A stretch of 64,000 nt of DNA, taken from assembly GCA_021613535.1 (NCBI GenBank), contig CP075493.1:17050001-17114000 (forward strand), written 5' to 3'. Both the position numbers and the translations under genes were made by a program. Of the stretch, positions 14,174-58,455 are shown piece after piece. Positions within the stretch are counted from its first letter, which is position 1. Every line of letters begins with the position of its first letter. Origin of the DNA: Adineta vaga (taxonomy: Eukaryota > Animalia > Rotifera). The notes beneath the pieces are model-generated. The model had not been told where the DNA came from, did not search any database, and saw nothing but the letters and a program-made list of their open reading frames with translations.

Positions 14174-14555
14174 CAAGGGGGAAAAAGCGAAAAGTCGGTA
14201 CTCCAGTATACTCTTTGTACTCCCTCGGTAAGTTATCAGTATCCTTGAAATTTTTCTTAGTGTTTTCAAGTTCACCAGTGACCAGTGTTACAGTGCACCC
14301 GCTGGAGTACAATGTAACTAACACTAGCGAGCAGAAAGCCTCAAATACTCCAAAATACTCCAGTTTCGAAGTATCATGGAGTATTTGAACATTTCTATTC
14401 GCTAGGTTTATTTGCATTGTACTCCAGCGGGTGCACTGTAACACTGATCACCGGTGGACTTGAAAATACTGAAAAACCTCTCAAGAATACTCATAATTTA
14501 TCGCGGGAGTACAAAGAGTATACGGAAGTACCGACTTTTCGCTTTTTCCCCCTTG
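14174..14555. mobile_element. Foldback MITE with CAAGGGGGAAAAAGCG TIRs (copy 1)
   Basis: Long TIR beginning CAAGGGGGAAAAAGCGAAAAGTCGGTACT. A near-identical copy lies at 38046-38429 in the opposite orientation. TSD not resolved. Confidence 0.85.
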
Positions 14556-15065
14556 GGATAGGTGAGTGTAGGTAATCTTATCTTTCTTCACCCGTACCCT
14601 CAAAACCAGTTGAAGAGAATTGTCTTTCTCTGGTTAATTTATGAATAGCGTCGATATTCATCCATAAATGTTTTTCAAGTTCATCAGCTTTATTTGTTGC
14701 TATTGGTATTGAAGTTCCATTGTAACTATTAGTATCACCAGGATTAGCAAATTGATCTTTCATAGATTTATGTTTCTTTTATAAAGGCTCTAAAACTATT
14801 ACAGTGTTATTGATTAAATCCTAGTATCTCGTTTGATCGTTCATGTATATAAAGGTGTACCACATGGTTAGAATGCGTCGTATCGAAGTTACTAATTTCG
14901 ATATAACATATAAGAGTTCAGTTCAAAGTAGAATACCTGAATTTGAACTGAACTCTAATCCATTCTCCGATTTATACATGAAAAAGAAGAACAATGTTCT
15001 ATGGTGAAAAATAAAAGTTTTACTGTCAATTAGGAAACATGTAATAGGCAAGTGGTCTGTGCATT

Positions 15066-17150
15066 TCACAGAGCCTGTTTGACCTGTATGACGTATTTGC
15101 TTGGTCTGTCACAGGTTTCAAAATAACGGTCTGTGCTTGTCGTAGGCAGGCAGGCGTCATGACTTGTTTGAATCTCTTTTTTATCCTCATTTTGATCTTT
15201 CCAAGGTATCACATGTCCATCCTCTTTTTCATACATATTAAGATCACCAATGTATATGGAAATGAGCTTTGATTCGTCCAATGCTTTATGTGCTTGTTGC
15301 ACTGCTTTGTGATATTCTTCAGTATTTCGTTGATTAGAAGGAAATGATTGATCGACTATTTTATCTGCATAACAGTAGGCTTCTTCTTTTCGTCCCAATG
15401 TTTGTAATGATAAAGCGATAAAATAGTACGTAAACGTGATATCTGTATGTAATGATGGAAGAATAACGAGCAGAATATCAAGTGCACGATGATAATAAAT
15501 TAGAGCTTCGTCATCTTTTTCTTGTTGAGACAAAATATAAGCAATATTCTTATATCCTTCAGCAATTTTATTTTGATCTACTGGAGATAGACTTAACTGA
15601 ATATCTAAAGAACGCTTGTAATAGTCAAGAGACATGTCTAGATTGTCCTGACTAGCATAAATATTACCAATATTATCATAGCATTCACTGACAAATGAAT
15701 CTTCATGATAATGCTCTACTTGGATACAATCAACTGCTTTCTCACAATATTCGAGCGCTTGATCATATTTTTTCATCTCGTAATGTAATTTACCCATGTG
15801 ATTAAGTGCTATTGCGTTTTGTTTTGCATCTTTAATTCTTTCCAACGCTTTTTTATAGAACTCGTTAGCCTTCTCTTTTTCGTTCATATGAGACATCAAA
15901 TGTCCTAGCATGAGTAAAGGACCATTCGGATCATAGATATTTCTTTGTATGAAATTGGACAACTTTTTCATTTGAGGATCTGCATCGGATGTTAATTCTA
16001 GTTCAACTTGCCATAATCCCTTCTCTATCTGTTCAACAGATAACATTCGAAAGACGGTACCCATTGAGAACAGAAATTCACTCTCAGCTCCTTCAAAGGT
16101 ACTTTGTGTATCAGTACTTGCAACGGCAATATCTAAGTTCATTGTTGAATCTAGATGAATACACATAAAAACGGCTGTGATTTCTTCATTTCCAGAAGCA
16201 AACATTCGAGCAACATTGTGATCACCAGTAGTAGAAAGAAAATTCGAAATAGAAACAAGTCCACCTACATTTGATGCAAAGCGTTCAAATGTATCGTTCG
16301 GCATGCTAAGACCACGAAAAAGAACAGAAGGAAGTGTGAGTTCGGATTGTTGAGCAAGACTACGAAGTTGCTGATCGAGATGTCGTATAACAACTCGCAT
16401 AGCATAGATAGCATCAATCTCCAGCGTTCTTAATGCTTTATTAAGCATTCTGTATAGAAATGAATCACGTGTGTACCATTCGATACTATTTTCTGCACAA
16501 TATTCTCGCTCGAAGTCACCAATTTTCTTTAGTTCACTAACATTACCTTCATAAATTGTTCGACAATATACAAGCATATCATTCATATCTGTATCTGTCA
16601 TTTGAAGAATAATGTTCTTTATTATTTGAGTGTACATGAAACTTGATTCTTGCTTATTTTTTAGTTCTACACTTGTGGTTGTTTGATTTTGAGCAAATTC
16701 GAAACCAATCATATTTCTATCTGCTTGAGATATACTATCTTTTAATACTGCATTCATTGATTCAATATTTGTGAAGATACCCTGTACTTTGCGATAATAA
16801 TTTATTTTCTGTTGTTGTGTTTCTTTGTCAAGGTTCAAAATAAATATTGATTCGACTTGAACATATGAGTGAAGTTGCAGAATATTCTGTTCATCAAATA
16901 ATTCCGAAATAATAATAAAGATTTTTTCATGTTTGATTGTACTAATAAACTGAATACAGTCATCGATATTAAAAAAAGTATAAATATCATTTATAATTCG
17001 TTGTAATTCTTTTTCTTCAGCATCTTCTATTGGCCTACCAAGCCATACAAGAACAAAATTTTCTACATTAAATCGGTAACGTTCACGAATTGAAGCAGAA
17101 GACTGTACGATCTGTTCATTCGATTGCTGTACATTCTTTTCATTCAGCAT
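15066..17150 (-). CDS. ADP-ribosyltransferase (R-S-E type) + TPR repeat protein, intronless
   Basis: WYTRDSFLYRMLNKALR, LFRG, FLSTT and ESEFLF catalytic motifs followed by TPRs; 694 aa. Confidence 0.85.
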   Translation of the reverse strand: MLNEKNVQQSNEQIVQSSASIRERYRFNVENFVLVWLGRPIEDAEEKELQRIINDIYTFFNIDDCIQFISTIKHEKIFIIISELFDEQNILQLHSYVQVESIFILNLDKETQQQKINYYRKVQGIFTNIESMNAVLKDSISQADRNMIGFEFAQNQTTTSVELKNKQESSFMYTQIIKNIILQMTDTDMNDMLVYCRTIYEGNVSELKKIGDFEREYCAENSIEWYTRDSFLYRMLNKALRTLEIDAIYAMRVVIRHLDQQLRSLAQQSELTLPSVLFRGLSMPNDTFERFASNVGGLVSISNFLSTTGDHNVARMFASGNEEITAVFMCIHLDSTMNLDIAVASTDTQSTFEGAESEFLFSMGTVFRMLSVEQIEKGLWQVELELTSDADPQMKKLSNFIQRNIYDPNGPLLMLGHLMSHMNEKEKANEFYKKALERIKDAKQNAIALNHMGKLHYEMKKYDQALEYCEKAVDCIQVEHYHEDSFVSECYDNIGNIYASQDNLDMSLDYYKRSLDIQLSLSPVDQNKIAEGYKNIAYILSQQEKDDEALIYYHRALDILLVILPSLHTDITFTYYFIALSLQTLGRKEEAYCYADKIVDQSFPSNQRNTEEYHKAVQQAHKALDESKLISIYIGDLNMYEKEDGHVIPWKDQNEDKKEIQTSHDACLPTTSTDRYFETCDRPSKYVIQVKQAL

Positions 17151-18750: not shown

Positions 18751-19987
18751 TATGGCATATTCGATTTCATTACCTGCAAGAGTAAGTAAATGAACATTTG
18801 TTGAGAAGGAAATGGAATATTTTCATATAGATAACTACTGCTTTATCTGTAACAGCATCTTCAGAAACGTTAGTATCAACAACAGCTAGTGATAATATCA
18901 AATTCAAAAATGATTTCATTTCCAAAATATCGACAATGAGAAATGAATCATTGAATAATCCTGTTCTTACATTAGAACGATATGATGAAACAGTTAAAGT
19001 AATTCGAAGAGAAATGATAAAGAAATGTCATTATTAAAAACTTACGATGTAATTAATCTTGGTAATCAAGATAAATCAGTTAAGAAAATTTATGAAAGAG
19101 AAGATACTACAATTAAATATTATGTTCCGCTAAGTGAAATTTATGATGTAATTAGAATTGCTCATTCAAATATAAGTCATCATGGTATGAAATATACTTT
19201 AAAAGAAATTAAGAGACGATGTGCGAATGTTACTGGAAAACAAGTTAAATTATTTATTTCTAATTGTGAAGAATGCAAAATGAAACGTTCTAAACCTAGA
19301 AACTCATCAAAATTAGTGATAAATCCGATTCTTTCAAATTATTTTATTAATTCTCGTGGTCAGGTTGACCTTATTGACATGCAATCGTACCCCGACGGAC
19401 CGTTTAAGTTTATATTGAATTATCAAGATCATTTTACGAAATTATGTGTTTTACGACCTCTTAAAAAAAAAACAACAGCAGAAGTCGCTTAGCATTTATT
19501 AAATATTTTTGCGATATTTGGTGCACCACTTATCTTACAGTCAGATAATGGAAGAGAATTTACCGCTCATGTCATTGAAGATCGTCAATAGCAAACCACG
19601 ACATTCACAGTCGCAGGGATCTGTCGAGAGATGTGATCAAGACACGAAACAGTTGTTAGGTATGTCAGAATGACATAGTTAATGCGCAATATTTTATTTT
19701 GCTATTTAGGAACATGGATCCGTGAAAATAATTCCACAAGATGGTCTGAAGAAATGGGCTTTGTACAGTTTCAAAAAAAAATTTGTATCCATCGAGAATT
19801 AAATAATAGTCCATATTCCGTTTTATTTGGGAACGAACCAAAATTAGATTTATCCTCAACATCTTTACATCCATTTGTATTTAATAATATAAGAACAGAA
19901 GAAGAATTAAATATTGTTCTTAATAGGACACGTGATAGTGATTCTAAAGTTTCTGATGATTTACAAGCGACAAAAGGGTATTACTAA
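18751..19987 (+). mobile_element. Degraded KRBA2/SCAND3-like DDE integrase (Ginger-type DNA transposon)
   Basis: HHCC zinc motif, RGQVDLIDMQ, YQDHFTK, FGAPLILQSDNGREF, PRHSQSQGSVER. In-frame stop and frameshifts. 3' part ends near half-junction E. Confidence 0.8.
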
Positions 19988-20250: not shown

Positions 20251-21360
20251 ATAAATATTGTTTTGACTACTTTAGCTTTTTTGATTTTTTTAGTTGCAAC
20301 ATTTTAAACCACTACAAATGGTTGTGCTCGTATTCATCAAATGAAACTATTTTGGTTAAATTTTTTATTTGTTAATAAATCCATTTTTATGAGAACCACA
20401 ATTTAAAAAGCAAAGTAAAAATATTAATAAATTGCAATTTCCTCATCCATTCACAATAGAATGTAGTTAGTAAAATTATACTAAGAGAAAGTATTGAATA
20501 AAAAAACAGGATATTATTAGGTTCTCATACAAATAACACACTATTTCGTACAACTAGTAGAGATAAATAATATTATAAATAAAGAAAATAGATTTGTTCG
20601 TCTCTATCCACTAATAACTTTAGTATTTCCGTCTGGTGATGACATTATTGGTTTTGCAACTCCAAAAACAACATTAGCGTTACTCGCCATAACTCCTCTG
20701 TATGTACCGACTTGATTGTCTCTTGTTTCTTCTGTACCATCAGAATATTTAATAGTTAGGTGAGATGTAAACGGAACTTCAACCGTTCCTTCTATAACAA
20801 ACATTGATGCATCTATGGTCGAATTTGCTGGTACTAGCACTTCTAATGTATATTCGTTTGATTTTTCTTCGGTTGTTTGCGAGCCGTATGAAAATCCTAC
20901 TGTGATACTTGCACTAACTTTCACTGTGCCTTCAGCAAGTATGGGAAATCCACATTTCAATGTGGTCTCTACGCCAACCTAAAATGGAAAGTATATAGTA
21001 ACAAAAAGAAAAGGTTCATGAACTATGAATAATGCCATCAGTTCTCATAAGGCATACGCTTGATGCATATGTTTTAGTTTTTTATTCAATAGTTTTAAAA
21101 TTTCTACCGATATTTTAGTGACCTATTGTAATAGTTCATTTTAATATATATAATCGAACAAGAATCTAGTTATCTAGCAATCTCAGTCTAAAAAACGATT
21201 ATAAATGTGTGAGTGCGATGTCTCTTCAATCTTTCATTATACCAATTAAATTCTATAGTTTGAAATAATTGAGAAAAATTCTTTTAGTCTGTGAAGATTT
21301 CACTTACTGACAGTTCAGCTGAGAAAGTAAACGATTGAGTACGACTAGTTTTATAGGTAA
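20251..21360 (-). pseudogene. 5'-truncated duplicate of the aerolysin-like toxin gene (3' UTR, last exon, last intron, end of the previous exon)
   Basis: High identity to 28706-29991. Homology stops exactly at TATAGGTAA|GGGTGTGGG. Confidence 0.9.
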
Positions 21361-22326: not shown

Positions 22327-25300
22327 ATGTGGAATTTAAATCATTTTATCATAATTTTCCTTCTTTTTCTCATTTTCAACAATGAAGCATTAGGTAAGTC
22401 ATTTTACCGATCACTCATATTCATTATTCTCTTTACGAAAATTGTTTAACATAAATATTTTAGCTACTTCAACTAATCAACCAAACTTATCTACAACAGC
22501 AGTTTGGGATCGTAATGGAATCACGATTGCTAACCGTTCGATTGTTGGGGACTATCCTCGAGTTATTTTTGTCGATATCAACAATACAATCTATGTCACT
22601 AATCAAGGAAAGATATTGATATGGCATAACGATAGTATCAATCCAACAAAGATCATGCCAGTAAATTTTTCAAGTTCTATGGGTTTGTTTGTAACTTTAA
22701 ATGGTAATATTTATGTTAATGACGGTTTGTTCAGTGGTCAGGTGAAGAGATGGACACTAAAGACAAACACTTCTGATATTGTCATGAATGTGTATTCATC
22801 ATGTTATAGTCTATTTGTTGATATCAATGACAATTTGTATTGTTCAATACATATGTATAATCGAGTAGTGAAAAGAGACTTGACTAGTTCTTCTATGGAA
22901 ACGATCACGGTTGCTGGAACAGGTCGTCCAGGATATGAGTCTAATGAACTTGAGAACCCAAGAGGAATCTTCGTTGATACAAATTTCGATTTATATGTTG
23001 CTGACTGTTTCAATAATCGAGTTCAATTGTTTCAATTAGGTGAAACAAATGCTATCACAGTTGCAGGACAAGGATCGGTAGATTCAGCTCTTGTCTTGTA
23101 TTGTCCAAATGATATAATATTAGATTCTGACAAATATCTATGGATTTTAGAACAAACGAATTTTCGTATAGTCAGAGAAGGACCGTATGGTTTTCGTTGT
23201 ATAATTGGATGTTACAGACAAGGCTCCCAATCCAATAGATTGGATAGTTCGTTTACTTTTGGTATGAATGGTTTTGGTAACATATTCGTTGCTGATGTAG
23301 GAAATCATCGAGTTCAAAAATTTCAATTGATAAAAATCACTCCTGGTAGGTAGACGAAAAACAATAGCTGAATAAGGTCAATGATTTTACATTGAAAAAA
23401 CATTTTTCAGAAGTTCGGTTTCTTTTTTTAATGTTTTAGCTGTTCCATTTAATCAACCGCGATTTTGTCAAACAGCAACTTGGAATCGTTACGCAATCAC
23501 AATTGCTAACCAATCGATCGTTGGAAAAGATCCTACAGTTATGTTTGTCGATACAAAAAATACAATTTATGGCGCTAATTATGAAAAGAGCGAAATTTTA
23601 ATATGGCATAACGATAGTCTCACTCCGACAAAAATCATTTCAGGTAACTTTTCACATCCATCCTCTTTGTTCGTAACATTGAATGGTGATATTTATATTG
23701 ATGATGGTGATGTGGGTAATCAAGTAAAGAGATTGAAATCAAACACAAATACTTTTGATAATGTCATGAATGTGTATTCATCATGTTATGGTCTATTTGT
23801 CGATATCAATGACAACTTGTACTGTTCAATGTTGTATCATCATCAGGTGGTGAAAAGAGACTTGAATAGTCCTTCGATGGAAATGATCACGGTAGCTGGA
23901 ACTGGTACGAAAGGATTTAATTTTAGTGAACTTAATGGTCCACTTGGAATCTTTGTTGATATAAACTTGGACATATTTGTGGCAGATTGCTCGAATCATC
24001 GAATTCAGTTGTTTCAATCAGGTGAAAAAAATGCTAAAATAATTGTAGGATTTGACTTCGCACTATCATTAGTAAAGGATATTTCATTGAGTTATCCAAG
24101 CCATGTAATACTAGATTCTGACAAATATTTATTTATTGTGGATCGTGCGAATTCACGTATAGTTGGAGATGGACCACATGGTTTTCGATGTCTTGTTGGA
24201 TGTGATAAAGAAAGTATTCAATCCAATCAACTTAATTTGCTAACTACTGTTAGTTTTGATACTTTTGGTAACATGTTTGTTGTTAATCAAGTAATGAATC
24301 GATTCTTAAAATTTCAGTTCTTTGAAAATTCTTGTAGTAAGTAGATTTTATTATTAATAGAGTTTATCTCAAAACTTCCTCCTTGTTTAATAGCGTCTCC
24401 ATTCAATCAACCAAAATTTTGTGCAAAACCTGTTTGGGATCGAATTGGAAAGACTTTTACTACTGAAATCACACTTGGTATAAATCCTACTGCTATTTTT
24501 ATTAATGAAAAAAATTCAATTTACGCTATTAATCGAGAGAAGAAACAAATTTTAATTTGGCATAAAAATAGTACTGATCCATCAATGATCATTTCTACTG
24601 ATTTCTATAATATATCTTCGCTATTTGTTTCATTAAATGATGATATTTACATTGATAATGGAGTGAATGGTCGAGTAAAAAAGTGGATATCAAAAAGAAA
24701 TACATTTGTTAATGCGATGAATGTTTTCTCACCTTGTGTTAGTTTATTTGTCGATAGAAATGATTATTTATATTGTTCAATGTCTAATTTTCATCAAATT
24801 ATCAAAATATATATGCATGAACGTGCTATGACATGGATCGCCGTGGCTGGAACGGGTGAAGCAGGATTTACTTCTTTGGATCTTGATCACCCCTACGGCA
24901 TCTTTGTTGATTTAAAATTTGATTTATATGTGGCAGATTGTGGAAATAATCGAATCCAACGATATTTATCAGGAAATATAAATGGTATTACAGAAGTAGG
25001 AAGTACATCAGCACGACACACACTTGCACTTTCATGTCCAACTGAAGTTACACTCGATTATCAAGGATTTTTATTCATTGTCAATTCGAACAATCATCGT
25101 ATTCTTCGATCAGGATCCAATGGTATCCATTGTATTATTGGATGTCATCATAGTGGTTCCACATCCACTCAATTGTTATTTCCATTTAATATTGCTTTCG
25201 ATAGTTTTGGAAATCTATTTGCTGTAGATTCAGGAACTAATCGAATACTAAAGTTTCAATACTTAAAAAATTCTTGTGGTAAGTAAGACTATACACATGA

Positions 25301-29065: not shown

Positions 29066-32000
29066 CTATCCACTAATAACTTTAGTATTTCCATCTGGTG
29101 ATGACGTTATTGGTTTTGCAACTCCAAAAACAACATTAGCGTTACTGGCCATAACTCCTCTGTATGTACCGACTTGATTGTCTCTTGTATCTTCTGTACC
29201 ATCAGAATATTTAATAGTTAGATGAGATGTAAACGGAACTTCAACTGTTCCTTCTATAACAAACATTGATGCATCCATGGTCGAATTCGCTGGTACAACC
29301 ACTTCTAATGCATATTGGTTTGATTTTTCTTCAGTTGTTTGTGAGCCGTATGAAAATCCTACTGTGATACTTGCACTAACTTTCACTGTGCCTTCAGCAA
29401 GTATGGGAATTCCACATTTCAGTGTGGTCTCTACACCAACCTAAAATGGAAAGTATATAGTAATAAAAAGAAAAAATGTTCATGAACTTTGGATAATGCT
29501 ATCAGTTCTCATAAGGCATACGCTTGATGCATATATTTTAGTTTTTTATTCACTAGTTTAAAATTTCTACAAATATTCTAGCGACTTGTGTGGATTATAA
29601 TCTCAAAGGAAATGCTCATAATATAATAAATTATTTGGTCAAATATATGTTGTAATATATGAGAAGGAATTAAATACGGTACGAAAATATAAAGTTAACT
29701 GTAAGAACTCAGAAAATTTCTCTATGAGACATTTCAATCACTCGATCTAATCGAATAAGGATCTGGTTATCTAGCAATATCAGTCTAAAAAAACATTAGA
29801 AACTATTGGAAATATCGTCGATATGTATTATAAATGTGTGTGTGTGCGATGACTCTTCAATCGTTCATTATACCAATTAAATTCTATACTTTGATATAAT
29901 TGAGAAAAATTCTTTTAGTCTCTGAAGATTTCACTTACTGACAGTTCAGCTGAGAAAGTAAACGATTGAGTACGACTAGTTGTATAGGTAAATGCATAAG
30001 TTTGCTTTTGATTTAGTGGCGAATAATTTGTCAATACTGTGTTGAACACTGTTCGTGGAGTACCAGATTGTGTTATTTGAGCATTAGTTAAATCGTAAAC
30101 TACAGATGAAACAGTGTATTGTTGTTCTTCTTGAGTCCAATAAAATCTGATTTGATTGAGATAATTGCCAGATCTTCCACTTATATATGATAGGACATAA
30201 CCTGGATACTGTTCAACAAAATCCTTATTTGATGCGGCAGCACCACATCGAGGGCTTTTTCTTCCTTTGTTGGTAGTGAACATTAAGCCGCTCACAGCAG
30301 TGCCGACACTTCCTTCCACTTTTACAATCCGTTCATCGGCATCTATACTAAATTTACATTCGGATCCCCCAGTACCACCATGTTGCGATGCTTGACGTAT
30401 TATTCCACTAGCTGCTCCATAATTTATTTGAATAGCATCGATACTACTACCAGCTTTTATTATTATTAGTCTGGGAGTATATACTGCATCATAGCCAATC
30501 TCATCTATATCATTAAATGCATTGTCTGTATTGAAACCATGTGGATCACCTTTCAGTAGGTCCTTTAGCACTAAAATAAAAACAAATACAATAAACATAT
30601 TACGTATCGCTAATTATTACATTCATTTCTTATTTGTCATCTTTTATACAATATTAATTAAATATCAGATGATTATTAATAAGTACTAGTGAAAAATAAA
30701 ATTCATTCAGACTTACTTTGTGAACTATCACAGTATCCAGTCATGACACCAACTTCAGGGGTATCAGCTAATGCTGTTGTTAGTAAAAAGCATTTCTTTG
30801 CATTCTTAGCAGCACTTGCTGTATAATAGTTCCATACTTTGCAACTAGACATTTTGTCACATTCGCGCATACATGCTTCAGGGGATGCCTTGTCAACACC
30901 AGCATAACCATCCATCACTATTCCTCCTACAGTATTCATATTGCTCTTCATTTTTTTGCACGGTTGTTTAACAATATTTTCTAGAAACACAAACATAAAT
31001 AATTAAGATTCATTTTAAATTATTAACATTACTTAATACAAATATATTTTATGAACTATTAGAATAGGTATGGAAAAATAAATAGTTGAGATCCGTATTT
31101 TGATTAGAACTCATTTTTCTTTTCCATACAATTTTAGCTACTGACGACGAAAAACTACTTTTAAGAGTAAGATATGCTGATTTAGAAAGACGATGTTTGA
31201 AATCTTAATGACCAGAGTGCAAAGCGAATTCGTCTATCTGAAACACAGTTTTCATGTAACTACTATTATTGCTTACCAGGTTGTTTTTTTGCGTAGACAG
31301 AGAAGCCTTTTTGGTAATTTAGTGAAGGTTGACCACCATTGCACTCATGAAGATAACAATTTCCATTACTATTATCTATATCGAATGAATCGCAGCCTGC
31401 TTTTACATCACAAGCAGCTTTGCACCTAGCAAGACCCAGAGGGCCAGAACTGACTGTAAGAGGACACCTACTTCCATAAATATTGAAATCAGTCGCAATT
31501 AGCATGTAGTTGTCCGCTGAAGTAGTTACTAGAATAAAATGGATAATTAAAATTTAAAATCAATTGTATATGTACATGCAGGAAAAACAAGATTGCATTC
31601 TTCAGAATGGTGCTTCACATCGGGTATTTTGGATATGTGAAACTGCTGATATATATATGCACAACAGTGTGTAAAATATACCTTTAGTTTTTAAGCATAT
31701 ATACCTACGGCTTGCTTCGAAGCTGGAACATTATCGTCATCGTTCTCGTCTTGAGGGTGAGGATGAGGAGTGAAGGTGGAGATTAGTTCTACTACGTGAG
31801 AAATATCACATCTCCATCGTCCGTCTCCAAAAAAACCATCTACACTCACACCCACACCCATACCCTCAAATCGTTTTCATAAGATTTCTCTTACCTGTAG
31901 TAGTAGTAGTAGTAGTAGTCTTGTAGTATGCTTTTCTATTACTGCTTGGAGAAATATTCGGATATTCTGACGAACATTTCAGAAGATCACATCGAGTCGG

Positions 32001-38045: not shown

Positions 38046-38429
38046 CCAAGGGGGAAAAAGCGAAAAGTCGGTACTTCAGTATACTCTTTGTACTCCCACG
38101 ATAAATTATAAGTATTCTTGAGAGGTTTTTCAGTATTTTCAAGCCCACCGGTGATCAGTGTTACAGTGCACCCGCTGGAGTACAATGCAAATAAACCTAG
38201 CGAATAAAAATATTCAAATACTCCATGATACTTCGAAACTGGAGTATTTTGGAGTATTTGAGGCTTTCTGCTCGCTAGTGTTAGTTACATTGTACTCCAG
38301 CGAGTGCGCTGTAACACTGGCCACTGGTGAACTTGAGAACACTAAGAAAAATGTCAAGGATACTGATAACTTATCGAGGGAGTACAAAGAGTATACTGGA
38401 GTACCGACTTTTCGCTTTTTCTCCCTTGG
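38046..38429. mobile_element. Foldback MITE with CCAAGGGGGAAAAAGCG TIRs (copy 2)
   Basis: Inverted near-identical copy of 14174-14555. Confidence 0.85.
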
Positions 38430-38724
38430 ATAATAATTAATTGTAAGTGGGCGTATATTCTGATTCCCGGATTCTGATTACATTTTGGTCAAGTTTTATG
38501 GGAAACAATATCCTTTTTTCTCACATTATTCTCGGAGCCATCAACGAATTGTGAACACAGAAGCAAGCAGACGATTTATGTTTGCTGGAGTATTCTCTAC
38601 GAGAAAGAGAATTACATATTTGTTTGCTCCTTAATTATCTTCTTCCGTACGATGCAGCCTATTGTTGACTTGTGATATTCTTGGTAGATACATTCGATCA
38701 ATCATCCAGCAACACAAAGCTATA

Positions 38725-38744
38725 CTCACCGGCACACCTCAAGA
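38725..38744 (-). repeat. Degenerate half junction N upstream of the NNT gene
   Basis: CTCACCGGCACACCTCAAGA. Confidence 0.5.
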
Positions 38745-38824
38745 CAGCAAAAAATCTCTCTCTCTCATCGTGCATAAAAAAAAACATTTTTCTCATAGAT
38801 TCTTCCTTGCGTGACGATTAACGT

Positions 38825-38833
38825 ATATATAAG
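38825..38833 (+). promoter_or_regulatory. Putative TATA box of the Cys-rich gene
   Basis: TATATATAAG about 100 nt upstream of ATG 38926; AATAAA near 39735 downstream. Confidence 0.45.
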
Positions 38834-38925
38834 ACCGAAGCACAAGTATAGATTCATACTATTTACATAGTTACTCATATTCATCGATCATCCTGCCTTC
38901 AAGCGTTGAGCAATAACAAACGACA

Positions 38926-39570
38926 ATGCAGAAAATCAACCAAATGATTTGTTTAATCGCGCTCTCGGTTTTCGTAGCTACAATATACATGCCACAGGCG
39001 GTGGCACTTTTTCCTAATTGTGGTTTTGATGATACTGATTGTTGTGCTGGTTGTACTTGTCGTTATGGTATTCCTCCTAATGATGTTCCTTATAGTTCTG
39101 TTGCTTCTCCTGCTCATTATCGTGATCCGAAGTATTATGCTGCTTTTATTAATGGCGGTGTTTGTCGTGGTAATAATGGTAATCGTAGTTGTCCTATTTG
39201 TGTTCGTAGTGGTGATAATTGTTCTGTTGATGGTCTTGACTGTTGTTATGGTAGTTGTGTTAATGGTCGTTGTACTCGTATTGCTGATGTTTGTTATGGT
39301 AATGGTGGTTCTTGTTTTGATTTTGATAATAATTGTATTATTGGTAGTAATTATGCTTGTTATGATTTTAATCGTCGTGTTGGTGTTTATCCTATTAATA
39401 TTCCTTGTTGTCCTACTAATTATTATCGTGATTATATTCCTGCTCGTAATCCTACTGGTGCTCTTATATATGAAGCTTATTGTAATGCTGGCCCTGGTGA
39501 TGGTAGTGATGCTCCTCCTTTTCCTAATTATAGTGGTGAAGTTGGTTATTGTAAGTTCAAATATTTTTAA
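38926..39570 (+). CDS. Secreted Cys/Gly/Tyr/Asn-rich protein with an almost pure NNT codon body
   Basis: Signal peptide at aa 1-27; knottin-like C-x6-C-x6-CC-x3-C-x4-C motif (CVRSGDNCSVDGLDCCYGSCVNGRC); intronless; 176/187 mature codons end in T. Confidence 0.85.
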   Translation: MQKINQMICLIALSVFVATIYMPQAVALFPNCGFDDTDCCAGCTCRYGIPPNDVPYSSVASPAHYRDPKYYAAFINGGVCRGNNGNRSCPICVRSGDNCSVDGLDCCYGSCVNGRCTRIADVCYGNGGSCFDFDNNCIIGSNYACYDFNRRVGVYPINIPCCPTNYYRDYIPARNPTGALIYEAYCNAGPGDGSDAPPFPNYSGEVGYCKFKYF

Positions 39571-40479
39571 ACTGCCGATCGAACATTACTATCCACCTTC
39601 ATTGACACTAACGAACATTATCGATTAGTTAGCTTTCTTCATTTATATTTTCAATTATGTGCTTCCGCTTCCCATATTCTCATATATTTTCTCTTTTCAG
39701 TTTCTTTTTAAAATTCTGCTCAATATTCAATTCCAATAAACAATACGCACTGAAAATGTATCCTACTTGGTCTCTTGAGAACAGTGCTATTTCGATTATT
39801 CTCTGTTCGCGTCAGAGTCCGACTTCGACCGAGACAGAACACGGATTAGATATGGTCACCGAAAAGATTTTCAACATTAGATCGGTTGGAATCACGGAAA
39901 AACTGCTGCGTCGGATTCTGGTTCGCATCGCTAGTTCTTTTAACTATCGTGTCTCTTAAATAAAAAATAATAAAAACAGCCATTTTTCGTTTACTCAATC
40001 AATATGCTGCATCGCAATTCTCTTCGATCAATGCCTGAAATAAGCTGTCTCCATCTTTCAGTTATAGTCCCCTTCTGGAAGTAAATGATTTGAAAAGTAG
40101 CGTTGAGACGCCAACTATGTTATACTAGCCGAGACTATCTCTTTGACAGATTATCATACATCTTACTTTTGTTCAGGAATCATGACCGGGCAAAACAGTC
40201 ATTAAACATCAAGGCTTCTCACTAAATGACAAAGCCATCTCCAAATGGTTTGCTGTTTGTTTCTCTATATTTTCATTGGGATTTCTAAATTCTAAATATC
40301 TTTCTTATTTCAAATAAACCACCCTACCTAAAAAAATTGCGCATAGACATTCGAATAAACATTAACAAAAAACCTTCATCAATTTTCTAGACGCACATGA
40401 ATGATGAGAGAAAGCAAGAATGCGTGGTAATTAAAGATAATGACAACTCATCTTGAATATGACAGTGACTTGAGGCTAG

Positions 40480-41036
40480 GGATGTAACAATACCAATACT
40501 CCAATACCGTATCGGTATTGTTACATCCCTACCATTGAACACAATGGTGGAATACCGATATTCTAAAAACCAATTCGACCTGGATGATCTTGAATGGTTG
40601 TATAAGTTCCACTTTATAATTTTAATTGTTTCTTTTCGATTTAGATCATGAACAACAATTTTTGTCAATAAAGAATTATAAAATGGTGAAATTTCTATTC
40701 CATTACAAATCCAGCTATCAATACGAACATCTTTTGATAGAAATTCAACTTGATAAAAACCTGATGATAGACGAAAATCATGTAAAAGATCTTCACTACA
40801 AATTCGATCTTCATTTGATGAATCAATTGATTTTGCAGTAAATTATATAATTCATCAATTGTTTCACCAGCTGCTAATCTTATCATCCATTCAACAAGAT
40901 CAATACCAAATATTGCTTCAGTAACGGGGATATTCAACCTTCAAAAAAAATTATTAATAAGTAAAATTCAAATTGAAAATTTAATTTAATTGTAAACGAC
41001 AATTTGCTTCAAGGGAATAATTCTTTTTTGAAATTC
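40480..41036 (-). pseudogene. Urea carboxylase / urea amidolyase fragment
   Basis: SLEANCRLQ/VEYPVTEAIFGIDLVEWMIRLAAG (biotin carboxylase), VRIDSWI.NG.EISPFY, then YST...YWSIGI (start of the carboxyltransferase domain). Truncated at junction O. Confidence 0.75.
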
Positions 41037-41268
41037 GAGGGTGTGGGTGCTTGCGTGTGTTTTCTCTTTCATCATCCACACCCACACCCACACCCACACC
41101 CACACCCACACCCACCCAGACCCAGACCCACACCCACCCAGACCCAGACCCAGACCCACACCCACACCCACACCCACACCCACACCCACCCAGACCCAGA
41201 CCCACACCCACCCAGACCCAGACCCAGACCCACACCCACACCCACACCCACACCCACACCCACACCCT
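41037..41268. repeat. Junction element O with an expanded (CCCACA/CCCAGA)n arm
   Basis: GAGGGTGTGGGTG, spacer, then about 180 bp of CCCACA and variant CCCAGA hexamers. Confidence 0.9.
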
Positions 41269-41407: not shown

Positions 41408-44400
41408 CAGTGTTTTTAATAGACCGTGCCAGCTGTGTGAGCAAAGTACCAGCGGCACGGAGAAATTTGAAAAGGCACGGTATTTGGCACTTTGCTAAAA
41501 AAAATGAGATATCTAGATGGTACTTTGTTAAATGAAAAAGTACCTTGCTTATTGGTTATCATAGCTTATCTATGAATCACTTTTTCCTTCCTTTATTTTA
41601 TTTCTACTTGTAGATGGAGCTAAAATAGTTTATTCTTCCACAAGATTTATTGTTGTTTTTAACTAGACAGGTTATTTAATTCGTTTTTTTCTTACATTTT
41701 TTTCTGGTTTCTCATTTGGTTTGGTGATTTGCTGTATTAATTTTCTCAACGTCTTTTTCAAATCTACGTTGGTATGTGATTATTTCGTTAGATTATTTCG
41801 AACCTTTGTTTTATACTTAGAACTATACAAGTTCGATATTCATTGTATTGAACAAGATATTCAATTCGTTTTTTTATTATTTTATTTCCGGTTTTCGTTT
41901 CTTTGTTGATTTGCGGATTTCTTAGTACTTTGTCGAAGACTAAGTAAGTGCATTTTCGTGATTATTTCATTTTTCTCATTCAGTTTATATTTATAATAGC
42001 TGTCTATGGATCAATCAAATTCTATTGAACTTCTTCATGATAGTTTATCATCTATTGGTATTCAAAAAGATGAACAAAATCTAAATGATTTATTAGCTAA
42101 TAATGGTGAAGTTTCATCTGAAGAAAATGAAATAAGTGATATTGATATTATTTTAACTGGTGTTATTGACAAATGTGCTGATGGAAATCGATTAGATATG
42201 TTATCAGATGTAACCATTAATCACGTTTGTGATACTTCATTAAAAAAAGGAAATCCAGCAGTAAAACAAACAACACATAATTCGAAACGATCAGAAAAGG
42301 AGAAACGTCGTTATTTGTCGTCATGGGAATCAGAACCAGTATGTTTTTATAAAACTTATTATTATGATATGCACAATGTTATGCTCGAAAGAAAAGTATG
42401 TTGGTTATATAAGAAAACCGATAAAAATGGTGATGACCGTATTTATTGTAAACTTTGTGCAAAATATCCAGGAATAAAATCAACAAATCGAAAAAGTAAT
42501 CCTTGGTGCACAGATGGTTATAGTATATTGAAAATGGCAAAAATCAAAGATCATGCAGCTAGTAATACTCATAAACAAGCTGAACAACTTGAATTACAAA
42601 CATCATCTAAAGTTCAACCGAACTGGTTGGTAGCACAAAATAAAGAACGAAGCAAACATGAGCTTTCAATTCAAAACTTAATTTTATCTTCTGTATATTT
42701 ATGTCAACAAGATCAATCAATAAATTCCTTTGGAAAATTATGTGTATTGATTGAAGCACTCGGTGTTAAATTATTACCAGCAGAGTTAGGTGGAGTTTCC
42801 TATCGAAACGATAATGCAGCTATAGAATTTTTGCGTCATGTTTCTGCTGGTTTACATGAAGAATTAGTACAAAAACTCAACCAAAGTCCATCGATCGGTA
42901 TAAAAAAATTACTTAAATTACCAAATATTTATTTTCTTGTTTTTTTAGGTTGGATGCTTGATGAAAGTACATCACGTACTGTTGAAAAAAGTTTAATAAT
43001 GTATGTTAGGTATTTCGAGAACAATGAAGCTAGGATTCAGTTTTATGGGATTTTGAAGTTAGATAGTGATGGTACAGCACATAACATTGTAGAATCTATT
43101 AAATTAATTTGGCAAAAAGATGGTTTTAATCCCGAAAAGACTTGTTGGTTTTCTACTGATAATGCTGCAACTTTCACAAGTACTAATTATTTATTGAAAT
43201 AATAAAATCTAATCTAATTGTTGAAGGTATAAATAATGGTGTTGTGACTAAATTGAAACGTGATTTTGGTCTTGCATTCATGGAATTAAACACTTGTGTA
43301 GCACATTCTTTTGCATTAGTAGGAAGTCAATCTGGTCTTTTCAAAGAAGGTATAAATTATCTAGTTTTATACATTGTTAAACAAGTTATTCTTTAGATGG
43401 TGGTAAACTGAAAAAACGAGATTTAATATGTAAAATGGAAAATATTATTGGAAAGATTTATTTATATTTCGGATCAAGTGCCATTCGAACTTTTAAATTG
43501 AAATCATGGCAAAATCTACTCGATATTCGTGAACTGAAATTTAAGAAATTGTTTCACATTCGATGGTCATCTATTAGAGATTCGATAAAACCAATTATCT
43601 TGAATGTTACACCAAGTAAATTGTTTTGAAAATTATTTAACATAATGTTATTATACTTATTATTTTATCATAGCAAAGCAAGCACTGTTAGCAACTTTAG
43701 AAACAATCAAATTTAACACGAAATTACCTGTCGATGATCGTGAATTTGCAGGAGAATTATTGGATTCGATACTTGATGATCAATTTTTGTTCATCCTCCA
43801 TTTTCACTATGACTTACATGAATGTGTTTTAGGTAAGATAATCTTATTACTTTTTAGAATTGTATCATTTGTTTTATAGGAGAATTAACAAAGATCTTAC
43901 AAGATGATGATTTACCATATTTTACCATGATGAACATATTAAATGAAAAGAAAAAGATATTGAATAACTGGTTATCTCAAAAAGATGAACTAGAACCTAT
44001 ACTTGGTCCTTCATTGAATGAATATGCAAATTCTACAGAAAAAAATCAGTCCTATGGTGCATTTACAATCATTACTGGTGATAGATCGAAACTTTTAAAT
44101 GAATGTTTTACACATATCAATCAATTATTAATAGAAATTGATAAAAGATTTAAACCTTCTTATGTACAACAACGTTTTATTGTTTTATTCGAACCTGATT
44201 ATTTAATTCAGCACAAAAGTGAGGTTGATAAACCTGGTTACGGTCGACAAGTACTTGATTTTCTTCGTATTAAATACCAACATTTACCTGAATTAAATAT
44301 GGATCAATGTCGAATTGAATGGGAAAAAATGAAGGTATCATTAAGTGAATTTGTTTTAAATAATCAAGAAAAAAATTCTCGACGAACATTTTGGAAATCT

Positions 44401-45454
44401 TTTATATTATGGAAAGAACCACTTGATAATTGTTTTCATGAACAATATAAAAATATCTTGATATTATTATCTATCTATTTGATATCATCACTTAGTTCCA
44501 CTGAATGTGAACGTGGTTATTCTGTTGCAAACAGAATTCAAACAAATGGACGTTCACGAATTATGATAGAAACACTTGATGTCTTGATGAATGTTCGATT
44601 ACTTTTACCAGATGATTTGAGAAGGTAAAAATATTGCCTGGTGCTGTGTCAGAAGACGCCGTTAAATTCTTAAATTAATTTTAGTGATCGATGTCGACAA
44701 GTAATTCAACAAGCATATAATTCATGGAATGGTATTAACGAAAATCGTCGAATCTTTAGCACAAAATTGATTATTGATGTACCAGATGATTATGAACCAA
44801 TAAAACACTCGCGTGCTACACATAAACGAAAACAAGAATCAGCAACAACTGACATTAGTCTACCTGAATCAAAAAAAAGAAAGTTAAAGATATAAAATGT
44901 GCTAATCGTTGTGGAAAATGTATCACTGATGATGATCCAGAAGAAATCCACGCCATACAATGTTGTCATCAGCAGGAATATTATGATTGGATTGAAGCTA
45001 ATTGTTCTCGTTGGTTATGCAATGTATGTCGTGTAAAATTAGGAATATCTATAGATACATTATCATGGTTTTGTGAAGATTGTATTGACATGCACGCAAA
45101 CGAATAATTGATTAGCGTTTTATTTTTTTGTTTGATATTGTATATAGTATGTTTACCATATTGTGGTTACTATTAGTTCATGAAAATATTCTTAATTTAT
45201 AGTCAGATATTTATGTATTTATTGTTGTTGGTGTTGATGTGTTTTACTTTATATTTGTATTATTTTTTCCATAGAGCTATCTCGTTATGAAAATATACTG
45301 ATAGTAAAAACTTTCACTATGTTTTCCTGTTATTTTTTTAAACTTTGGTACGGTATGGTACTTTGCCACTTAAAACAAAGTACCACATGGCACTTTGACT
45401 ATACATTGAACGTGCCAGTAGGCCTTCTGCTCCGGATTCCTATTAAAAACACTG
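41408..45454 (+). mobile_element. Full-length hAT transposon (ZNF862-like transposase)
   Basis: 15-bp TIR CAGTGTTTTTAATAG; 8-bp TSD CCATTGAT at 41400-41407 and 45455-45462. Confidence 0.93.
42006..45107 (+). CDS. hAT transposase, multi-exon, with a C-terminal PHD-like Cys cluster (frameshift in the A-run near 44875)
   Basis: CKLC..H..H zinc finger, MLDEST, STDNAA, CVAH, IRWSS, SSTECERGYS dimerisation motif. Confidence 0.8.
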
Positions 45455-55693: not shown

Positions 55694-55768
55694 GGTCGTT
55701 CTAGTCTAACTGGCTTAGGACATCTGCCCAGATAGCAGAAGATGTGGGTTCGAATCCCACGAAGATCA
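55694..55768 (+). tRNA. tRNA-like gene with a non-canonical anticodon loop (AGA), inside a MITE
   Basis: A box TAGTCTAACTGG; anticodon arm TCTGC-CCAGATA-GCAGA; T arm GTGGG-TTCGAAT-CCCAC; acceptor GGTC(G)TTC/GAAGATC; T5 terminator. Confidence 0.6.
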
Positions 55769-57695: not shown

Positions 57696-58455
57696 TAGTT
57701 TATATGGCATTGATAAATTATTCTGTTTCTCGTAGAGAAGAGTCTAGCATACATAAATTGTCTGCTTGCTTGCTTGTATGTTCACACTTCACTGATTGGT
57801 TCAAGAAAAAGGTGAAAATAAAAGGGATAGTTATCTGCAAAACTTAACCAAAGGGTAATCGATGACGGAAGTTTAAATCAGAGGTCTGACTAAATTAATG
57901 AGCTATTGATTAGTTATTAATTGTTTATTAATTATTAATGTTTTTCATAAAACTTCGCCAAAGGGTAATCGGGAATTGGAAGTTCAAATCTAATCTTAGT
58001 TTTATTTCATGAATTACTAGTTAATTATTAACTGTTTAACTATTGATGTTTTGCTTTGAAAATAAATCAAAGGTAATCTGGAATGAAAAGTGCACATCTG
58101 AGGTTCTTTTTTATTAATTAATGAGAGTAAGTAAGTTGCTGTCAATTCCAAAACACCATTTCTACGAAAAAGAGCTGAGCGAGTCCTCGGACGAACGTTA
58201 CTTGTTATGTTATATATATTTTTATTTAATTAATAATGAAAAATATAAGGATGAGAAAGTAATGGTAATATATGCGCAAATAAGGAAAGGTTAAATATAT
58301 ATATATATACAATTCTTGTAGAAGGTAAGGTAAAGCTGTGATGCCAAAAGTATACAAGAAAATAAAATCCAAGTATTGGAGTGACTTAAATAGGATAAAA
58401 GGCAAAAATTTATTACTCGTAGGACGTTATCTTTCATGCATGAACTGTATTTTTG

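Follow-up and report, generated by a model that had tools for sequence, protein, structure and literature searches.

The window, i.e. the whole stretch of 64,000 nucleotides of Adineta vaga DNA analyzed here, is AT-rich eukaryotic DNA carrying NHL, TPR, jacalin, PAN, and F-box-like genes. On its forward strand, positions 38926-39570 form an uninterrupted, intron-free open reading frame (ORF) of 214 codons, whose product starts with a hydrophobic leader, after which come 187 residues including 21 cysteines. The features of this gene, hereafter the window gene, are as follows.

38824..38832, forward strand: TATA-box-like element placed by motif position, of putative function, aligning with the same element upstream of a homologue (contig L001)
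38926..39006, forward strand: leader and likely signal peptide, codons 1-27, with 17/27 codons ending in A or G
39007..39567, forward strand: mature coding region in T-ending (NNT) codons, with the change point at codon 27/28
39019..39192, forward strand: cysteine frame 1, C32-C89; eight cysteines with the spacing 6-5-0-2-1-n-8 in the homologues, seven in the window gene
39199..39273, forward strand: cysteine frame 2, C92-C116, C-x6-C-x6-CC-x3-C-x4-C, knottin (ICK)-like
39292..39552, forward strand: cysteine frame 3, C123-C209, eight cysteines with long inserted loops
39568..39740, forward strand: TAA stop codon (39568-39570) and 3' UTR, with AATAAA at 39735 and no three-base T phase
38978..39628, forward strand: shadow open frame with T at mid-codon, hydrophobic residues only, a by-product of the NNT codons
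38953..39585, reverse strand: antisense shadow open frame, likewise a by-product of the NNT codons

The cleavage site of the leader was judged by eye from the hydrophobic core and the small residues ahead of codon 28. The two long shadow frames were rejected as genes, since they are arithmetic consequences of the NNT pattern; the antisense frame is open because ANN codons cannot be stops. The other elements of the window considered here are listed below.

15066-17150, reverse strand: ADP-ribosyltransferase-like plus TPR gene
19025-19492, forward strand: integrase zinc-finger remnant
22442-25286, forward strand: three tandem NHL-repeat ORFs
38046..38429, unstranded: MITE-like element bounded by terminal inverted repeats, lying 500 bp upstream of the window gene
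40387-40842, reverse strand: biotin carboxylase C-terminal exon
42006-44628, forward strand: hAT-type transposase pieces

The MITE-like element has a second copy at 14174-14558 (96.6% alike) and many more copies in the DNA runs; we treat it as a co-located feature only, a link to the codon pattern not being shown. A second dispersed repeat upstream of the window gene (38560-38611 and 57720-57860) is also multi-copy in the DNA runs. ORFs with an ETX_MTX2 (aerolysin-type pore-forming) domain above the Pfam cut-off were found on the reverse strand at 20604-20978 and 29066-29440, and the latter lies just downstream of a jacalin-domain ORF (29915-30598, reverse strand), which suggests a lectin-pore-former gene split by introns. 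A tRNA-Ser gene with the anticodon AGA (55694-55768) and a CCACAC/CCAGAC array (41076-41267) that has 33 units and a higher-order repeat of 74 bp were also present.

T-ending codons accounted for 176/187 (94%) of codons 28-214 versus 4/27 of codons 1-27, exactly as counted in the preliminary description of this DNA. The change point follows codon 27, and codons 27-28 lie within 2 log-likelihood units. Based on the local codon use (14 Pfam-supported ORFs of the window, 3650 codons), 113.2 T endings were expected from the same amino acids in the mature part (P = 1.8e-33), indicating that amino-acid composition does not explain the excess of T at the third codon position (T3). By the same amino-acid-matched comparison, the leader was depleted of T endings (4 observed, 10.2 expected; P = 0.002). 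In the mature four-fold boxes, T occupied 80 of the 83 sites (96%), with two C, one G, and no A, compared with 43% T and 41% A at the four-fold sites of the neighbouring genes, and the two-fold NNY boxes ended 87 times in T and twice in C. The four-fold T share ranked first among 175 stop-to-stop frames (0.85 including the leader; next 0.68, median 0.35). The longest pure NNT run extends over 75 codons (106-180) and uses 15 of the 16 NNT codons. For serine, AGT was as frequent as TCT (AGT:TCT, 7:4 in the window gene and 6:6 in the L001 homologue). The absence of Gln, Met, and Trp from the mature chain and the presence of only three Lys and two Glu were also confirmed, these five residue types making up 5/187 versus 18.8% locally. 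The claim that the DNA pattern constrains the protein holds only in part, since the homologues keep 9-16 of these residues in 169-179 mature residues. The contrast between leader and body was absent in four other genes of the window, three of them with apparent leaders, where four-fold T was 34-54%. DRACH (m6A-type) motifs occurred once in 39007-39567 versus about 10 at the average rate of the window, probably as a by-product of the codon pattern.

The T content of the mature region (46%) would be in keeping with a local, strand-biased mutation to T, with selection at the protein level clearing positions 1 and 2. However, codon position 2 of the mature region is T-poor (17%), and no comparable excess was observed in the 5' leader (30%), the signal region (27%), or the 3' region (40%). 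The boundary is one codon sharp within a single exon, and the leader and the UTRs have no in-phase T excess, which argues against a regional mutation bias. This explanation is therefore considered very improbable. The sequence is also not a simple repeat, in agreement with the preliminary description: the in-frame self-match of the window gene was no better than that of codon shuffles (P = 0.55-0.99), and the sole array detected by TRF was a weak one of 21 bp (65%) at 39158-39222. The L001 gene gave P = 0.04 at 15 codons against codon shuffles in one of six tests. Since the look-alike stretches match the codon-shuffle level and internal repeats are absent, in-frame triplet slippage, which had been proposed as one origin of the pattern, and internal duplication were rejected.

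Relatives of the protein were confined to Adineta (A. vaga, A. steineri, plus metagenome contigs), the closest named one being I4U23_000218 of A. vaga. A length-free search of 1.84 billion representatives gave a family of two clusters at 50% identity, and no shorter member was found at E <= 10 among 32 candidates. No relative was confirmed among 209 pattern matches in viral contigs or 39 in prokaryotic genomes, and no rotifer contig was found in the viral collection with the neighbouring TPR protein as the query. In searches of the open-access literature, we found no report of the protein family or of an NNT-coded animal gene. The L001 contig, from a JGI metagenome, carries the gene of P0006, whose product is about 50% identical to the window protein; the 3' regions of the two genes are 69% identical. 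In the L001 gene, 154 of the 179 mature codons end in T (expected 104, P = 3.9e-21) versus 8/29 in the leader, and the change point lies at the place homologous to that of the window gene. Orthologues with normal synonymous codons, which the preliminary description had named as the case against its reading, did not occur here. The T3 pattern is real, heritable, and unusual.

A search for paralogues, as suggested in that description, was also productive. The paralogue P0003 was recovered from DNA runs of the same organism, where 40/238 bases differ in one contig aligned to 39141-39378. Of the coding differences listed (29), 12 fall at codon position 1, 11 at position 2, and 6 at position 3; T is lost at 5 of the 6 third-position differences listed, and 7 of the 16 changed codons of this piece differ at both positions 1 and 2. 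P0003 is annotated without a leader and has more non-T third bases, and one of its contig variants misses a conserved cysteine; selection on this paralogue may be relaxed. In three of the four runs guessed as RNA, one piece of 38-42 nt (6-7 differences, <90% alike) covered the start codon and part of the 5' leader; in two such runs it continues into a different sequence. This is a weak hint that other genes share the 5' leader and start of the window gene. None of the four runs gave a piece on the body, a result that speaks neither for nor against expression. The coding sequence of the window gene was identical in four DNA runs from four studies, as assembled in contigs, which drop rare variants. 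Two of these runs (X4 and X6) showed no difference over 38402-40100, and the other two (X1 and X3) showed seven over 38347-40100, which we infer to sit in the upstream repeat.

The mature part has 22 cysteines in most homologues, compared with 21 in the window gene, where frame 1 has seven because a six-residue stretch with the second cysteine is absent. This frame contains a lineage-specific loop (codons 49-74, T3 24/26), and the tail of frame 3 (codons 165-208, T3 40/44) is unlike the conserved tail of all homologues. The C-C-CC-C-C spacing of frame 2 with knottin loop lengths is present in the window gene and most homologues, and all six of its cysteines align with ICK peptides, with weak profile matches (best E = 0.027). 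Frames 1 and 3 look like eight-cysteine knottin-like versions with inserted loops. The atlas neighbours were mostly knottin toxin families with scores of 0.75-0.79, which serve as leads only, and the best scores were 0.81 and 0.79 (<0.9). The structure models had a pLDDT of 41.5 at full length and 62.7 for a domain, and with these low-pLDDT models no fold match was found in Foldseek at E <= 0.001 or in VIA at Z >= 2. No Pfam family reached the cut-off for the window protein; Toxin_29 (E = 0.011) appeared in only two of nine members. A knottin is defined by the disulfides I-IV, II-V, and III-VI, which form the knot (PMC2984590). Given the poor models and empty fold searches, the knot is predicted here from cysteine spacing. 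The product is likely a secreted protein with three predicted knottin-like domains. A defence or toxin-like product is plausible because of the knottin likeness and the loop variability; of the immune, adhesive, or toxin repertoire gene suggested earlier, it is this part that finds support in the cysteine frames.

The frames invite comparison with ICK peptides such as omega-atracotoxin-Hv1a and the omega-conotoxins and with the multi-domain MgCRP-I precursors of mussels, which likewise combine a leader with C-C-CC-C-C frames and variable loops. In MgCRP-I, a conserved leader precedes a positively selected mature region with repeated cysteine modules (PMC4558851). Unlike these, the window protein has three frames per chain with long inserted loops, is net acidic, and shows no dibasic pro-region and no Pfam family at the cut-off.

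The window gene and the L001 gene, the only two full coding sequences compared, were aligned in a gap-free block of 88 codons. In this block 25 amino acids differ; positions 1 and 2 were both altered in 11 of these 25 codons, and 23 of the 25 retain T in both genes. The dS of the block was 0.18 and the dN 0.20, whereas the leader had a dS of 0.93 on 15 synonymous sites, about five times that of the body. With flank divergences of 0.34 (3') and 0.61 (5'), the silent divergence of the body is thus below that of the neutral flanks in this one gene pair. Codons of the same amino acid differed at 7/80 positions in the core versus 5/14 degenerate positions in the leader (Fisher P = 0.015), although the aligned four-fold sites (7/37 differing) were not clearly below the 3' flank (57/207). 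The idea of a constant leader with a variable body was consequently borne out for the body, which varies at positions 1 and 2 with T3 kept, but not, at the DNA level, for the leader. Leaders may have been exchanged among paralogues, which would affect the estimate of leader divergence.

AAY template codons of DGRs lead to variation at codon positions 1 and 2 with the pyrimidine fixed at position 3. The concentration of the variation at positions 1 and 2 of the window gene is similar, and the preliminary description had proposed A-to-N copying from such a template; an integrase zinc-binding remnant (19025-19492) also lies 19 kb off. However, no 50-nt template matching all non-A bases was found on either strand of the 64-kb window or in the flanks of L001, the fewest mismatches being four, and no RT family was detected in 72 ORFs (26 + 46), a search that intron-split genes could escape. 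Of the 45 differences between the window gene and L001, 22 occur without an A in either gene, and the two genes have 35 A in common; made with no template for reference, this count speaks neither for nor against the adenine restriction of DGRs. The coding sequence is the same in the four runs from four studies, and a DGR would not bring invariant codons (Cys, Gly, Pro, and Arg) to T3. Furthermore, known repeats span about 120 bp and DGRs were not found in eukaryotes according to PMC3521204, whereas the body here is 561 nt long and the host is an animal. On the evidence of the window and the L001 flanks, DGR-like mutagenic retrohoming from an adenine-rich template is thus hardly credible.

Another explanation is that the body module was NNT-coded on arrival, its source being an extreme-T3 donor or triplet-periodic DNA. 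After its fusion to a rotifer leader it would now be decaying slowly, while positive selection changes positions 1 and 2 quickly. The sharp boundary at the leader and the absence of an intron fit such a joining, and the pieces labelled as RNA (38-42 nt, <90% alike) weakly suggest that the leader start is joined to other sequences. The loss of T at 5/6 of the third-position differences listed for the paralogue points in the same direction, and L001, with 11/83 non-T four-fold sites, is compatible with neutral decay from an all-T ancestor at flank rates (P = 0.50 and 0.08). The window gene, by contrast, is too pure, its 3/83 non-T sites being too few for neutral decay at these rates (P = 0.002 or 1.5e-5). 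Sequence new to the lineage of the window gene is also NNT (24/26, 40/44, and 10/11), including the lineage-specific loop and tail, in which conserved K/Q codons were replaced. Moreover, a donor was not found: relatives occur only in Adineta and in none of the viral or prokaryotic contigs, and viral NNT runs, with T in at least 46 successive third positions, were repeats of low complexity in 122/122 among the matches listed, unlike the window gene. These loci, represented by the first match each, use 2-12 distinct triplets per 46, and the comparison with the 75-codon run is not length-matched. We regard an inherited pattern as possible but doubtful.

The double changes bear on a further explanation, namely that an undescribed codon-phased process rewrites the body and reshuffles the amino acids with T fixed, for example by in-register conversion among a larger pool of NNT genes or through a specialised tRNA pool. 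In the tRNA-pool variant, only codons read by G34, I34, or Q34 would be used. The changes at both positions 1 and 2 in 11/25 codons with T kept in both genes at 23/25, the 7/16 double changes of the paralogue piece, and the near loss of K/E/Q/M/W (5/187 versus 18.8% locally) are what such a process would leave, and the window gene, the most diverged of the family, is also the purest in T. However, loop sites that are positively selected would be expected to show double changes as well. No donor pool was seen (two clusters at 50% identity; 0/32 shorter candidates), internal repeats are absent, and the four DNA runs are invariant, albeit in contigs that drop rare variants. The tRNA-pool model also leaves unexplained the loss of C-ending codons, which are read by the same tRNAs, and the A/G-rich leader. 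We consider a codon-phased process unlikely.

The most likely explanation is that codon selection takes an extreme form in this new multi-knottin-like family and that the mature part is kept in T-ending codons by strong silent-site selection for translation that is fast and unstructured; in this specific form we hold the explanation with roughly even confidence. In both of two divergent genes the T3 pattern begins where the leader meets the body, and silent divergence in the body is below that of the leader and flanks. Since the codon phase and this boundary are both seen by translation, silent-site selection is favoured. A two-state mutation-selection model of the four-fold sites gave S = 3.6 for the window gene and 2.2 for L001, and the fraction of neutral flux predicted by the model (0.23-0.57) was close to the observed ratios (0.19-0.52). 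Compared with 150 synonymous recodings, the predicted local mRNA folding was weaker (z = +4.3 for the window gene and +2.0 for L001), and by computation T at all four-fold sites gave the least folded predicted mRNA among the uniform choices. Low contents of A and C may account for this weak folding as a side effect.

According to this selection model, T-ending codons would be those preferred in highly expressed Adineta genes, as in other AT-rich animals. The favoured sets of the AT-rich insects Oncopeltus and Gryllus are close to the NNT set of the window gene (PMC4632051). In Oncopeltus, each of the eight four- to six-fold amino acids has an optimal codon ending in T, as do Asn, Asp, Cys, His, Phe, Tyr, and Ile, and CTT, CGT, CCT, TGT, GAT, and TAT are favourites shared with the window gene (PMC4632051, Table 1). 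A codon table for bdelloids was not found in the literature, including the accessible part of PMC8351084. The window gene would yield its product abundantly, perhaps in bursts, for use as a defence peptide. The leader may be exempt from T3, or kept slow for secretory targeting; signal-sequence codons that are non-optimal help secretion in insect cells (PMC4689351). Ordinary point mutation, acted on by positive selection, would diversify the loops between the cysteines, with the changes visible only at positions 1 and 2 because position 3 is held. Several observations stand against silent-site selection. The bias, with T at 96% of the four-fold sites, is far above the modest shifts in insects (delta RSCU, 0.1-0.37), and AGT is freely used, yet it is not optimal in the Oncopeltus table (PMC4632051). 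The T3 pattern is missing from other secreted-looking genes of the window, and L001 by itself is compatible with an all-T ancestor that decayed neutrally.

The nearest precedent is the preservation of cysteine codons in conotoxins, spider toxins, and mussel MgCRP-I, which concerns Cys codons only (PMC3823881; PMC4029134; PMC4558851). In conotoxins and funnel-web spider toxins, silent sites are conserved within the hypervariable mature region, and a mutator has been proposed for the preservation of the Cys codons, for which direct evidence is described as lacking (PMC4029134; PMC3823881). The toxin bias is position-specific and restricted to Cys codons, often TGC, whereas that of the window gene is always to T and covers all 15 T-capable amino acids, variable loops included.

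Taken together, selection of S ~2-3.5 on silent sites, acting on the mature part only and starting at the signal cleavage site, would be stronger and sharper than in the published animal cases compared. The window gene thus offers a clean test of why the leaders and bodies of secreted proteins differ in codons, and a test of the efficiency of codon selection in asexual bdelloids. The Adineta-only family with three knottin-like frames has no name in the databases searched and is a candidate for an antimicrobial or defence peptide of rotifers. If expression does not explain T3, the pattern would point to an undescribed route of gene diversification in animals. Secreted defence genes of bdelloids might, though we think it improbable, be kept in pure NNT by an undescribed codon-phased mechanism, such as in-register conversion or reliance on a limited tRNA pool of the producing cell, as a stop-free NNT peptide library behind a shared leader.
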